Positions 6,379 through 60,483 of a DNA stretch of 64,000 nucleotides are shown in pieces. This DNA comes from Nitrospinales bacterium (GTDB lineage Bacteria > Nitrospinota > Nitrospinia > Nitrospinales > VA-1). The stretch is taken from positions 352,001 to 416,000 of the forward strand of contig OZ253496.1 of NCBI GenBank assembly GCA_965262115.1. The letters run 5' to 3'. How positions within the stretch are numbered: position 1 is the first letter of the stretch; each line of letters starts with the position of its first letter. The notes under the pieces are model-generated. The model had not been told where the DNA came from, did no database searches, and worked only from the letters and a program-made list of their open reading frames with translations. The position numbers and the translations under genes are program-made.

Positions 6379-6419
6379 TGTGATGTCCCCTTCATTAAAC
6401 TTCATGCCCAGAACGGGTA
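6379..6419 (+). mobile_element. Micro-element B copy 1 (41 bp)
   Basis: TGTGATGTCCCCTTCATTAAACTTCATGCCCAGAACGGGTA; removal restores the perfect hairpin CCCTCTTT-GAA-AAAGAGGG. Confidence 0.75.
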
Positions 6420-6501
6420 CTTTGAAAAAGAGGGAGCAAAAACCAACCCCCTAGCCCATCGAACAAACCGTATTCCTATTATTCGAGTTATCAGGGGGAG
6501 C

Positions 6502-6560
6502 ACCGGGCAAAAACTCATTAAGCCGAGAAAACTCTTTTTTACACTTGAAAGAGATATTGC
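6502..6560 (+). repeat. Intergenic repeat family A copy 1
   Basis: ACCGGGCAAAAACTCATTAAGCCGAGAAAAC...TATTGC matches 7 other copies. Confidence 0.75.
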
Positions 6561-21771: not shown

Positions 21772-21792
21772 TAGAAAAGTAAGCGGGCTAGC

Positions 21793-21850
21793 ATTGGGCA
21801 AGAGTTCGTTCAGCCGAGACAAATGCTGCTAGCTAAACAGAGTCATTGCT
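21793..21850 (+). repeat. Repeat family A copy 2
   Basis: ATTGGGCAAGAGTTCGTTCAGCCGAGACAA...GAGTCATTGCT. Confidence 0.75.
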
Positions 21851-21855
21851 AGCTG

Positions 21856-21895
21856 TACCCTTCAGGGCATGAAGTTTTTGAAAAAGGATATCACA
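21856..21895 (-). mobile_element. Micro-element B copy 2 (40 bp)
   Basis: Reverse complement TGTGATATCCTTTTTCAAAAACTTCATGCCCTGAAGGGTA. Confidence 0.7.
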
Positions 21896-23191: not shown

Positions 23192-23319
23192 GTGGGATCA
23201 AAAACCTCTTTCAATAACAAAACAGGATTATAACACCCCTGCCATTTAATTTTACGACTTCACCAGGGCAAAAGCCCCTCAATCGACCCCACGCCCAGTG
23301 CCCACTCCCGTGGGAGGGA

Positions 23320-23381
23320 ACTGGGCAAGGACTCGTTGAGCCGAGATAACTCATTGCTAGCCAAATAGAGTTATTGCCAGT
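23320..23381 (+). repeat. Repeat family A copy 3 (clearest inverted ends)
   Basis: ACTGGGCAAGGACTC...GAGTTATTGCCAGT. Confidence 0.8.
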
Positions 23382-23382
23382 C

Positions 23383-23422
23383 TACCCCTCCGGGGCATGA
23401 AGCTAATGATGGTGATATCATA
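23383..23422 (-). mobile_element. Micro-element B copy 3 (40 bp)
   Basis: Reverse complement TATGATATCACCATCATTAGCTTCATGCCCCGGAGGGGTA. Confidence 0.7.
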
Positions 23423-24280: not shown

Positions 24281-24378
24281 GAAATCAGGTTAACAAATAG
24301 TTGAAGATGGTGTAAATAATTTTTGCACCGGCTTTGAGGGTGCCGGAGAAAGAATCGGCTTGAGGACCTTTTCTATAT

Positions 24379-24420
24379 TCCCTCCCTTCATAGGGAGGGA
24401 TTCAGGGAGGGTTGGATTAA
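24379..24420 (+). repeat. Repeat family C (CCCTCCC hairpin) copy 1
   Basis: TCCCTCCCTTCATAGGGAGGGATTCAGGGAGGGTTGGATTAA. Confidence 0.8.
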
Positions 24421-24474
24421 AAAAGGGGAGGCAACTTCGAACAAGTGACAGAAAGCTTATTTAAAATTCTTCCC

Positions 24475-25317: not shown

Positions 25318-25344
25318 CTAATTATTTCATCCTCTAAAAAAAAG

Positions 25345-25381
25345 CCAACCCTCCCCCAGCCCCTCCCTATGAAGGGAGGGG
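25345..25381 (-). repeat. Repeat family C copy 2
   Basis: CCAACCCTCCCCCAGCCCCTCCCTATGAAGGGAGGGG, inverted relative to copies 1 and 3. Confidence 0.8.
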
Positions 25382-25753
25382 AGGCAGATGTTTTAAAATC
25401 CTTTCGTAAACTCCATTCAGGTTTTCATAAACATCCTGGTTGGTAAAACGCAGAAACCGTATTCCCATATTTTCGATAACCTTCTGTCGGACCTGGTCCG
25501 ATTGTGCAGCCTCTTCGCTAAAATGAGAATCCCCATCGATTTCAATCGCGAGTTTTGCCGATGGGCAATAAAAATCCAGAATGTATCGATCAACACTGTG
25601 TTGCCGCCGAAACTTGTGTCCATTTGCCTGCCTGTTTCGCAAAAACTGCCACAAAGCCACTTCCGCTGGGGGCATTTCTTTGCGCAAGGACTTTCTCCTG
25701 GTTTTTTCTGTATTTTTATTAAAAATTTTTACCATTGTTTTTTTGTTTTTCAT
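25367..25753 (-). CDS. DUF559 (Vsr-like) endonuclease domain protein
   Basis: LRKEMPPAEVALWQFLR...KFRRQH...YILDFYC...LAIEIDGDSH...LRFTN. Confidence 0.92.
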   Translation of the reverse strand: MKNKKTMVKIFNKNTEKTRRKSLRKEMPPAEVALWQFLRNRQANGHKFRRQHSVDRYILDFYCPSAKLAIEIDGDSHFSEEAAQSDQVRQKVIENMGIRFLRFTNQDVYENLNGVYERILKHLPPLPS

Positions 25754-25754
25754 A

Positions 25755-25797
25755 TCCCCTCCCTTCATATGGAGGGGTTTGGGGAGGGCTGGATTAA
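25755..25797 (+). repeat. Repeat family C copy 3
   Basis: TCCCCTCCCTTCATATGGAGGGGTTTGGGGAGGGCTGGATTAA. Confidence 0.8.
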
Positions 25798-25897
25798 AGT
25801 TGGCATCCGAACCTGAAACCAGATTAATAAATAGTGCAAGATGGTGTAAATAATTTTTATGCCTGCTTTATGGCAATATTTTTCTTGATAAATTCCA

Positions 25898-38607: not shown

Positions 38608-38790
38608 CCGTACGCGCTCCACAATAAAAACAATATTTTGGGGAATATGAGTAGTCCGCTATTCTAAGGCAGTATCCGCACTTGTAAAGCTTAAAATCCG
38701 ACTTTTGCTCATCATTGGCCAAATTTTACATTATTTGCGGAGCACCTCCACTGGGCGGGTCACGCCCGGTGGCTGCTCGCCGCAGGGGCA

Positions 38791-38846
38791 ACTGGCAAAA
38801 GCTCGTCAGGCCGAGACAACTTTTTCTTGCCAAATAACGCTATTGC
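38791..38846 (+). repeat. Repeat family A copy 4
   Basis: ACTGGCAAAAGCTCGTCAGGCCGAGACAAC...GCCAAATAACGCTATTGC. Confidence 0.75.
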
Positions 38847-38858
38847 ACACTGGCAGCA

Positions 38859-38899
38859 TGTTATGACCCCTCATTAGTCTTCATGCCCCGAAAGGGGTA
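38859..38899 (+). mobile_element. Micro-element B copy 4 (41 bp)
   Basis: TGTTATGACCCCTCATTAGTCTTCATGCCCCGAAAGGGGTA. Confidence 0.75.
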
Positions 38900-44416: not shown

Positions 44417-44509
44417 AATTAGCCTGCACTCCCCTGCCAGATTTGGTAAAATATCACTAAGCGGCCCCTTAACAGGAGACCTTTGCGTAAGTCGATAAAG
44501 CAGAAAAGC

Positions 44510-44624
44510 GAGATGCTTCGACATACCCCTCCGGGGCAAGAAGGCAAAGGTCGAGTATCACTAGCTCAGCATGACAATAAAAGGCTGTTTTGTCATTCTG
44601 AGGAACAACGTGACGAAGAATCTC
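44510..44624. repeat. REP-like GAGATGCTTCGACA..AGCTCAGCATGACA / TGTCATTCTGAG..GAAGAATCTC inverted pair inside the MITE
   Basis: Arms at 44510-44576 (interrupted by element B) and 44591-44624 are partially complementary. Confidence 0.65.
44524..44562 (-). mobile_element. Micro-element B copy 5 (39 bp, diverged)
   Basis: Reverse complement AGTGATACTCGACCTTTGCCTTCTTGCCCCGGAGGGGTA; removal gives GAGATGCTTCGACAAGCTCAGCATGACA. Confidence 0.65.
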
Positions 44625-44660
44625 GGGGTTATGCAAAGGTTTCCCTTAACAGGGAAGGCC

Positions 44661-44718
44661 ACTGGGCAAGTGATCATTGCGCCGAGAAAACTTTTTTCTT
44701 GCCAAATAACGCTATTGC
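44661..44718 (+). repeat. Repeat family A copy 5
   Basis: ACTGGGCAAGTGATCATTGCGCCGAGAAAAC...CTATTGC. Confidence 0.75.
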
Positions 44719-44730
44719 ACACTGGCAGCA

Positions 44731-44770
44731 TGTTATGACCCCTCATTAGTCTTCATGCCCCGAAGGGGTA
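44731..44770 (+). mobile_element. Micro-element B copy 6 (40 bp)
   Basis: Identical to copy 4 except for one A. Confidence 0.75.
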
Positions 44771-55315: not shown

Positions 55316-55335
55316 CCGGGCCCCGCCCGGTGGGA

Positions 55336-55392
55336 ACTAGCAATAACTCGTTGCGCCGAGAAAATGATTGCCCATAAAATAAACACAATGCT
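55336..55392 (+). repeat. Repeat family A copy 6
   Basis: ACTAGCAATAACTCGTTGCGCCGAGAAAA; adjacent TTCCCTCCCACGGGAGTGGG is the reverse complement of 23301-23320. Confidence 0.7.
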
Positions 55393-58849: not shown

Positions 58850-58978
58850 CAGCCCCCTGCTAAGGAGACCTTTGCATAACCCCGGATTACCCCTGCGGGG
58901 CACGAATTGATCTTCCCCTCTCATGAGGGGAGGCAAGGCGTAGCCGCGGAGGGGTGTGGATTATTTTTACGGAATTCA

Positions 58979-59020
58979 TAATCCAACCCTCCCCTGGCCC
59001 CTCCCTATGAAGGGAGGGGA
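58979..59020 (-). repeat. Repeat family C copy 4
   Basis: TAATCCAACCCTCCCCTGGCCCCTCCCTATGAAGGGAGGGGA. Confidence 0.8.
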
Positions 59021-59185
59021 AATTTCTGCTTCCGCATTTTCTACTTACGCAAAGGTCTCCCTCGGAGGGGAGAGGAACTTAATAGTTGAGGAGGACATCC
59101 ACCTACGGAAAAATATAACATGATCTTCCCCTGAATTGGTGGACACATCGAAAAGTGTGGATAATACACTTTTGGAGGTGTTTTT

Positions 59186-60380
59186 ATGGGAACCAAACGC
59201 AGGAGTTTCAGTAAAGAATTCAAGTTAGAAGCGGTTCGATTGGTTATTGAAGTAGGCGATAGCATTGCCCGGGTGTCCCGGGATCTGGGAATCCGTTCTG
59301 CCCTTCTGGGTCGCTGGAAACAGGAGTATGAGGAGGATCAGGGGAATGCGTTTCCCGGCAAAGGACAGCTTAAGCCGGGAGATGAGTTGCAGCAGTTGCG
59401 GCGAGAAAACGCTCGCCTTCGTATGGAGCGGGACATATTAAAAAAGGCGGCAGTTATCTTTGTGATGTCCTCTTCATTTGTCTTCATGCCACGAAGGGGT
59501 ACTCGAAGGGTTCCCAATGAGATATCGGTTTATACGGGATCATCGAGAAGCATTTCCGGTAAGCCCGATGTGCCGGGTTCTGGAAGTGGGACGAAGTGGG
59601 TTCTATGCCTGGCTGAGCCGCCCCGAGAGCCTGAGGAGCCGTGAGAAGCAGCGATGGGTTGATGAGATCAAAACCGTTTATAAGAAGAGTCGCCAGACTT
59701 ATGGCAGTCCCAGAATTCATGAGGACTTGAAAGACAAGGGATATGCCATTGGCAGGCATCGTATTGCCTGTCTTATGCGCGAGCATGGAATCGTTGCCAA
59801 GCACAAAAGAAAGTTTAGGGTGACAACCGATTCCAAACATAATCACCCGGTGGCAAAAAACAAACTGCAACGGCGGTTTAATGTTGCTGAGCCCGGTCAA
59901 TGCTGGGTTTCGGATATCACCTATATCCCGACTCAAGAGGGCTGGTTATACCTTGCGGTGACGCTGGATTTATTCCACCGTAAAGTTATTGGTTGGGCCA
60001 TGGATCGTTGGATAACCCGTTGGTTGGTAATGAGAGCTTTAAATATGGCAATGAAGAACGGCGGCATGAAACCGGGATTGATTCACCATTCTGACCGGGG
60101 GGTTCAATATGCCTGCAACGATTTTCAAGCCTTGCTCAATGTTCATGGGATAGAGTGCAGTATGAGCCGGAAGGGCGATTGCTGGGATAACGCCGTGGCG
60201 GAGAGTTTTTTCCATACTCTCAAAGTGGAACTCATTCATAACCGGAACTACAAAACCCGTCAGCAAGCAAAGAAGGATATTTTTGAATATATCGAAGTGT
60301 TTTATAATCGGCAACGCCGTCACTAATATCTCGGCTATCTCAGCCCTGCCGAATTCGAGAAACAGGCCTATGCCTCTTAA
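59186..60380 (+). pseudogene. IS3 transposase orfA/orfB, disrupted
   Basis: orfA FSKEFKLEAVRL; orf[26 protein letters not shown]; 41-bp insertion at 59461 and premature TAA at 60324 (RRH*YLGYLSP). Confidence 0.92.
59461..59501 (+). mobile_element. Micro-element B copy 7 (41 bp) inside IS3 orfA
   Basis: TGTGATGTCCTCTTCATTTGTCTTCATGCCACGAAGGGGTA; removal restores KKAAVIFSKGSQ* with an ATGA overlap onto orfB. Confidence 0.85.
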
Positions 60381-60483
60381 CTAACTGTCCACTAAAACAG
60401 GGGAAGATCATCTCGCTTTTCTGCTTTATAGACTTACGCAAAGGTCTCCCTGCTAAGGGGCGGAGTAACTCCGCTGGTAAATT

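Follow-up and report, generated by a model that had tools for sequence, protein, structure and literature searches.

Element copies in the window and the source genome

The analyzed window, a 64,000-nucleotide stretch of a Nitrospinales contig, contains an IS3-family element that carries, near the end of its orfA, a 41-nucleotide copy of a short repeated element. A first-pass annotation had proposed seven copies of this short element on both strands, and we verified all seven, with every coordinate and strand matching; a profile search added an eighth, partial copy. The features are as follows, with the basis for each in parentheses.

59121..60410, plus strand: host IS3-family element, with orfA from 59186 and orfB at 59517-60326 (homologue and copy comparison)
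59461..59501, plus strand: element copy of 41 nt, inserted near the IS3 orfA end (position check, homologue comparison)
59485..59486, plus strand: dinucleotide directly 5' of the hairpin of this copy, complementary to its bases 1-2 (59461-59462), of which base 1 covaries (covariation)
59487..59501, plus strand: 3'-terminal hairpin of this copy, with a GNA triloop and one stem mismatch at 59491 (covariation)
6379..6419, plus strand: element copy within a CCCTCTTT/AAAGAGGG stem repeat (intact paralogues)
21856..21895, minus strand: element copy (position check)
23383..23422, minus strand: element copy (position check)
38859..38899, plus strand: element copy with a CC-to-AG change in its left flank (filled/empty site comparison)
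44524..44562, minus strand: A-T-type element copy, within a TGTC/CGTC-type palindrome, at its loop (covariation, intact repeats)
44731..44770, plus strand: element copy with a CC-to-AG change in its left flank (filled/empty site comparison)
58888..58925, minus strand: eighth copy, a right-end part broken up by nested repeats (profile search)

The source genome (G000) is a single contig of 2.68 Mb. As the first-pass annotation had suggested, we built a profile from the seven window copies, iterated it, and searched G000, with the reversed genome as a control. This search returned 365 matches at E<0.01, compared to 0 at E<1 in the control. Both ends were present in 267 of the 365 matches, and 257 of these two-ended copies were 39–41 nt long; together, the 267 comprised 195 distinct sequences. 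The element has the form N-GTGAT, a variable pyrimidine-rich middle, TTC[AGT], and then TGCCCC-GNA-GGGGTA. Copies were mostly intergenic, with 10/267 in open reading frames of at least 150 residues, which cover 74% of G000. The proposed comparison with Rfam gave no match, nor did plasmid sequences and annotated phages, and we found no description of the family in the literature searched, which included few subscription papers.

A second dispersed, hairpin-ended repeat family, which is a frequent host of the element, occupies window positions 6501-6538, 21792-21829, 23319-23356, 38789-38826, 44660-44697, and 55334-55371, and several further repeat families emerge after peeling. A MITE-like unit whose inverted ends are of the GAGACCTTTGC type, and which carries palindrome arrays and element copies, lies at window positions 44475-44515, 59030-59060, and 60409-60449. 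The first 100 kb of G000 (G000:C1:1-100000) contain long simple tandem repeats and no element copy, and may not belong to the bacterial chromosome.

Beyond the source genome, a strict pattern detected the element in 19/22 genomes of the same genus and in 0/18 others, and a looser pattern detected it in 34/70 family genomes with zero control matches. The covariance-model scan of relatives that had been recommended was positive for 50/120 genomes of the phylum, with 42/69 positive within the family. In a genome collection, 79/80 loci among the matches listed had Nitrospinota-type titles. Identical element variants recur across different genera. One phage contig carries six clear copies and one weak copy in the parts examined, and a second carries one copy; a copy at L365:2001-2040 is inserted in an apparent coding stretch of a phage contig, in what is presumably a prepilin-type gene. 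The element is a 39–41-base piece, present in hundreds of mostly intergenic copies, of marine Nitrospina-type bacteria.

Insertion boundaries and spread

The first-pass annotation had reconstructed three empty sites that gave the same boundaries, and each reconstruction is borne out by sequences without the element: IS3 homologues in G016, G063, and G003 are missing precisely 41 nt at the element's place, the repeat around 44524 is present intact 19 times, and the stem around 6379 has intact paralogues. Alignment of filled and empty sites, another of the proposed checks, confirmed the exact ends. The longest flank duplication was 0, 1, 2, and 3 nt in 147, 96, 23, and 1 of the 267 copies, respectively, with none of 4 nt or more; target-site duplications and terminal inverted repeats, the hallmarks of MITEs, are both missing, as had been claimed. 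It had also been claimed that the element sits mostly inside other repeats, and 161/267 joined junctions indeed had a spanning match elsewhere in the genome, a count that includes tandem and self-nested cases.

The host IS3 required a closer reading. All 13 IS3 sites in G000 with the exact flank word carry the insert, as do short-read contigs from three runs, and the seven full-length IS3 copies in G000 differ by 0–4 bases. The first-pass annotation had named intact IS3 copies with the 41 bp as a result that would speak against insertion; such copies are the only kind within G000, but the relatives in three other genomes are without the insert, and the 41 bases are therefore still an insertion. 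As read from the sequence, orfB lies in the -1 frame with respect to orfA without the insert and in the +1 frame with it, and the usual orfA/orfB fusion should therefore fail. Apart from a 55-residue fragment, G000 contained no other IS3 OrfB, and no helper transposase was found. A skipped or excised 41-base IS3 junction was not seen in the contigs of the three runs, in which rare forms are lost. The interrupted IS3 may have spread through a lost helper, rare excision, or recoding.

We also compared G000 with 1.2 Mb of G019, at 95% flank identity. Among 245 G000 clusters, 65 were comparable in G019, where 35 were element-free, 14 had a different number of copies, and 16 had an equal number; in the reverse comparison (52 of 98 G019 clusters), 23 were element-free in G000, 13 differed in number, and 16 were equal. 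Many of the syntenic differences are gains or losses of entire host repeats, and a few clean single insertions were found between close genomes. Near-identical variants occur at unrelated targets; within G000, 1 of 20 multi-site sequences does so, and much of the copy number is therefore hitchhiking. We also considered splicing of the element from RNA, which is unlikely because element removal restored no host gene in the 25 best candidates (judged by eye) and just 10/267 copies lie in long open reading frames.

A predicted fold that can unite both ends

The pair that closes the hairpin loop was C-G in 153 copies, G-C in 69, and T-A in 13, and the loop was GNA in 244/267 copies; the terminal hairpin is maintained by compensatory changes. 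GNA triloops are especially stable in DNA, which argues for single-stranded DNA of the strand shown.

Base 1 covaries with base 16 from the end (-16), with T-A, C-G, and A-T pairs in 199, 119, and 13 of 368 de-duplicated copies, the portion from outside G000 having been chosen by pattern. On 116 distinct sequences, in an alignment fitted to the structure, these pairs numbered 64, 35, and 7 (covariation 0.217 vs 0.087; 0/500 shuffles). With one copy per target family, pairing held in 53/53 T-A and 22/25 C-G cases, a reduction in which a single family absorbed 365/517 copies. Base 2, a G, is opposite a nearly invariant C. The pairs of bases 1 and 2 stack on the hairpin at the 3' end, which brings both boundaries into a single helix, either in place or in a circle; the two ends can thus stack in one stem, as they would at a circle junction. 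Joined ends fold at a mean of -5.3 kcal/mol, compared to -4.1 with a random first base and -3.1 for the 3' part alone. The 5' helix is 2 bp long, and for single linear copies folding is no more favorable than for shuffles.

Head-to-tail arrays occur in G000 as 15 dimers and one 5-unit array, and in metagenome contigs as arrays of 1+14 and 1+4 units, lengths that may reflect assembly. Four long head-to-tail arrays (L403:3001-3550, L391, L393, and G000:C1:814839-815055) consist of one related group of 39-base variants with a first unit of a different variant. Such arrays could result from slippage or, in short-read metagenomes, from assembly. Among the contigs examined, which included those of three short-read runs and lose rare forms, no element circle was observed; candidate joints were repeat cross-matches.

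Targets and changed flank letters

Across 199 non-tandem unique targets, the frequency of G at -5 was 0.62, of a purine at -3 was 0.76, and of C or G at -2 was 0.85, compared to 0.02 for A at -2. The earlier statement that the flanks share no common target word is therefore correct in that no fixed word exists but too strong with respect to the weak bias at -5, -3, and -2. The insertion point has no constant place within target hairpins, and no structural target rule held. Insertion showed no bias with respect to transcription (62 sense vs 68 antisense copies) or replication strand (84 leading vs 82 lagging, with the origin set by GC skew in a rearranged genome). The variable middle showed no complementarity to either flank and no covariation of the kind expected between guide and flank, and we rejected a guide in this region.

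Filled sites often show letters never found in empty paralogues, mainly in the left flank at -4 and -3 (21 and 20 of 93 sites). When the target is the element's own hairpin, CC is changed to AG in 15/19 filled sites vs 0/249 empty sites, in cases that span 13 hosts and 9 guests. The CC-to-AG change also occurs in an unrelated repeat, in 7/9 filled vs 0/82 empty sites. A third target class shows a change in 13/36 vs 0/89 sites in relatives, partly within-array copies, and in 0/10 in G000; at tandem junctions, flank change was not significant. Target letters at -5 to -3 are changed in three of these four classes, in one of them solely in relatives. One guest element was found with both flank alleles. 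As a test of whether the old flank is carried along, we compared close variants, which share letters at -5 to +3; shared target families persist in those pairs, and there are clear counter-examples. A template for the changed flank letters was not found. We infer that a short mismatched or re-synthesized patch arises at insertion.

An IS110 element inserts in the hairpin

A 1.2-kb IS110-family element with PF01548 and PF02371 domains joins the element's hairpin at 26/26 of its junctions in G000, with an AG/CT core (L176:997-1947 and 25 others). The non-coding end upstream forms a fold with internal loops; one loop matches both hairpin strands, and the other matches the ends of the IS110 itself. 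Bridge RNAs with such guide loops are described in PMC11208160. In G013 and G016, variant guides correspond to naturally occurring hairpin variants, and the copy in G013 is likewise joined to an element hairpin. IS110 flanks appear shuffled among copies.

IS110 recombinases had been listed among the possible movers, but this element targets the short element, and homologues are present in just 5/70 family genomes; it therefore exploits the element rather than moving it. A test of the short element as a non-autonomous IS110 donor failed, with no core duplication and with donor guides that fit the ends of IS110 itself and target guides that fit the element. This IS110 is a parasite of the element, not its mover.

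Search for a mobilizing enzyme

We searched for known movers in three genomes that are rich in the element and closed or almost so (G000, G013, and G007). Y1 transposases were missing from these three and from G006, and no RAYT exceeded the cut-off in G000, G013, or G007, so neither of these suggested enzymes is a recognizable mover there. Y1 genes occur in 7/23 genomes of the genus; those of the other genus members have no element copies at their flanks, and one belongs to a genome that lacks the element. Y2 transposases were found in 0/5 genomes. Tyrosine recombinases (two conserved Xer-like genes plus 0–2 others) were not supported, and a scan of G000 open reading frames for HUH motifs gave no supported mover. 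Cas1 does not follow the element (9/70 genomes, 0/6 in genus g18), and the CRISPR arrays of G000 are built on other repeats. Three partly fragmented CRISPR-Cas loci in G000 (G000:C1:765604-769605, 2120041-2127676, and 2643216-2646159) are, we presume, of types I-F, I-C, and II.

A search for longer elements with the same ends enclosing an enzyme gene, another proposed check, found none: the 21 right-end-only matches in G000 and those in the examined parts of relatives are decayed or nested, and genes flanked on both sides by the element are ordinary. The suggestion that the repeat is an excision scar is not supported, because no longer two-ended element occurs among these 21 matches. The other suggestion, of a minimal non-autonomous mobile unit whose enzyme lies outside the window, is upheld.

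Mechanism of movement

We put at about even chances the reading that the element is non-autonomous single-stranded DNA moved by HUH-like cut-and-join chemistry, through a circle and with a fold that unites both ends. By this mechanism, the gene-less 39–41-base element would move as folded single-stranded DNA, with bases 1-2 predicted to pair beside the terminal hairpin and bring both ends together. An enzyme, probably of HUH-like chemistry, would cut and join both ends at one place, giving a putative single-stranded circle with its junction embedded in an uninterrupted stem; transfer of the strand to a G-n-R-S-n site would follow, and a mismatched or re-synthesized short patch upstream of the junction would leave old or new letters. 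Hitchhiking within larger repeats and IS3 would account for secondary spread. This reading is favored by the fixed ends, the absence of a target-site duplication, the covariation of the hairpin and of bases 1 and -16, the arrays, the rewriting to AG, the presence of variants at unrelated targets, the phage copies, and paired bases placed like the guides of IS200/IS605 and REP elements. Against it stand the lack of Y1, RAYT, and Y2 enzymes, of a strand bias, of a fixed target word, and of complementarity between middle and flanks, together with the 2-bp 5' helix, the shuffle-level folding of single copies, the lack of a circle in contigs, the share of hitchhiking, and the null results for rewriting in tandem junctions and in the 0/10 class in G000. 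Known HUH transposition is precise, and leaves the changed flank letters unexplained.

Small GIY-YIG genes may offer another route, as element copies lie at fixed positions in the palindromes that flank them, which are common targets. A close GIY-YIG homologue tracks the element loosely, being present in 18/34 element-positive vs 5/36 element-negative family genomes (Fisher p 8e-4, with kin not independent). These observations, and the concentration of flank changes on the left at -4 and -3, favor a model in which repair synthesis or template switching pastes the element into nicks left by nucleases of the host or of other selfish DNA, such as GIY-YIG or DUF559, with re-synthesis from the primer end changing the letters. 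We consider nick patching of this kind unlikely, however: with a single query, the GIY-YIG homologue was not found in the element-rich genomes G047, G066, G054, and G004; DUF559, which has nine matches in G000, was not found in G007 and was not supported as a mover; the insertion place within target hairpins is not constant; and the exact right end and the pairing of base 1 are left unaccounted for. A DUF559 gene lies at window positions 25367-25768 (minus strand) amid CCCTCCC-type palindromes, which recur at 24369-24421, 25342-25382, 25746-25798, and 58980-59020. Stand-alone GIY-YIG genes of ~95 residues occur amid arrays of CGTC/TGTC-type palindromes, laid out like RAYT genes among REPs (L285:1441-1728, L292, L295, and L293), and the stand-alone GIY-YIG is a candidate mover of CGTC repeats, which are described as having no dedicated transposase (PMC3733652).

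Alternatively, the element could be a relic whose Y1 or RAYT mover was lost, or is met occasionally on phages, and which now spreads passively in MITEs, REP-like repeats, and IS3, with gene conversion copying flank alleles. The single multi-site sequence in 20 at unrelated sites, the 195 distinct sequences among 267 copies, the gain or loss of whole host repeats between G000 and G019, and the Y1 genes in 7/23 genus genomes fit this proposal, but we regard it as quite unlikely given the spread of the AG cases over 13 hosts and 9 guests, the clean single insertions between close genomes, the copies in phage DNA, and the same variants in different genera. An RNA route, in which reverse transcription would copy a short structured RNA into targets, would suit the resemblance of the element to the cyanobacterial small dispersed repeats discussed below, which are alike in size, in nesting, and in having no dedicated enzyme. 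Base 1 would pair equally well in RNA, but we rate this route slightly lower again, as reverse transcriptases are missing from G007 and G019 and are represented in G000 by two broken matches, both in the element-free first 100 kb, the covarying pair closes a GNA triloop, which is a DNA-type motif, sense and antisense copies are balanced, and Rfam holds no match. Single reverse transcriptases in G013 and G006, tried as movers, are not flanked on both sides by the element.

Beyond the HUH-like reading, we tentatively raise a further possibility, that the element represents a new minimal class of mobile DNA. Here, a 40-base single-stranded circle would have its own fold as the whole recombination site, and an enzyme outside known transposase families would edit the target just upstream of the junction; such an element would have drawn an RNA-guided IS110 parasite, and may be skipped or excised enough to keep the interrupted IS3 active. 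If its chemistry is new, it would provide a minimal scar-free insertion system. The element offers unusually sharp experimental handles, namely its exact ends, the prediction of the active fold from a covarying pair, and closed genomes without the usual enzymes, and a 40-base oligonucleotide is sufficient to fish for the enzyme. The repeated flank change must be reproduced by any proposed mechanism.

Comparison with known systems

In its workings the element comes nearest to an IS200/IS605 or REP end, yet it belongs to neither; the lack of enzyme, target word, and strand bias and the changed flank set it apart from those families. Like IS200/IS605 elements, it has no target-site duplication or terminal inverted repeats, and its geometry resembles that of their left end as described in PMC6006769 and PMC8266576, with a cut ~20 nt upstream of a guide 5' of a hairpin; in IS200/IS605 and REP elements, the guides lie immediately 5' of the hairpin (PMC8266576), and single-stranded DNA circles are used by IS200/IS605 elements (PMC6006769). 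Unlike these elements, which are described as having two subterminal hairpins and a fixed 4–5-nt target word read by the guide, the present element has one covarying hairpin serving both ends and a weak target bias alone, with its paired base inside the element. Neither a cognate Y1 TnpA nor a parent element sharing its ends was found, it shows no lagging-strand bias such as that of IS200/IS605 elements, including IS608 (84 vs 82 here), and its flank letters change.

REP and REPIN-RAYT systems, as outlined in PMC8266576, PMC3116915, and PMC3733652, share with the element intergenic GC-rich hairpins, hundreds of copies, targeting by IS110, and bases 5' of the hairpin that appear to pair with the cut site. 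Unlike REPs as there described, the element has no GTAG or CGTC tag by its hairpin, which is preceded by TTC[AGT]; its unit is a singlet with fixed ends and a 24–26-nt unpaired leader rather than the inverted doublet of a REPIN; and no RAYT gene is flanked by it. It differs from IS91/Helitron-like elements in lacking a Y2 transposase (0/5 genomes) and a fixed target word, from retroelements in that it is abundant in places where an intact reverse transcriptase is missing (none in G007 or G019, and broken matches in G000), and from CRISPR in having no association with Cas1, the arrays of G000 having other repeats. Larger MITEs are catalogued in PMC3184786.

The IS110 element resembles IS621 as presented in PMC11208160, with a DEDD and Tnp20 recombinase, a CT core, and a non-coding end whose left and right target guides match a repeated hairpin; a 2026 preprint on IS621 reports single-stranded circles. 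Unlike IS621 on REP, it targets a 40-base mobile element and is therefore a parasite of a parasite. It provides a natural bridge-type recombinase directed at a mobile hairpin, and its guides vary from genome to genome.

As a kind, the element is closest to the small dispersed repeats (SDRs) of cyanobacteria, to which we liken it by their general description. SDRs are very small, insert precisely, nest in themselves and in other repeats, have compensatory structure, and have no enzyme assigned. Elhai et al. reportedly described SDR1-8 of Nostocaceae in 2008 (Genome Res 18:1484) and proposed an RNA route. By the usual definition, the element is similarly short (<100 nt), inserted precisely, nested in itself and in repeats, and compensatory in structure; it differs in length (39–41 vs 21–27 nt), in its occurrence in Nitrospinota rather than cyanobacteria, and in a DNA-type triloop in place of the proposed RNA route. 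The SDRs of Nostocaceae are discussed in PMC5861425, PMC4390886, and PMC3116915, with precise insertion of SDR5 described in PMC4390886. The element bears on how very small repeats, including SDRs, CGTC repeats, and orphan REPs, move without a dedicated transposase.
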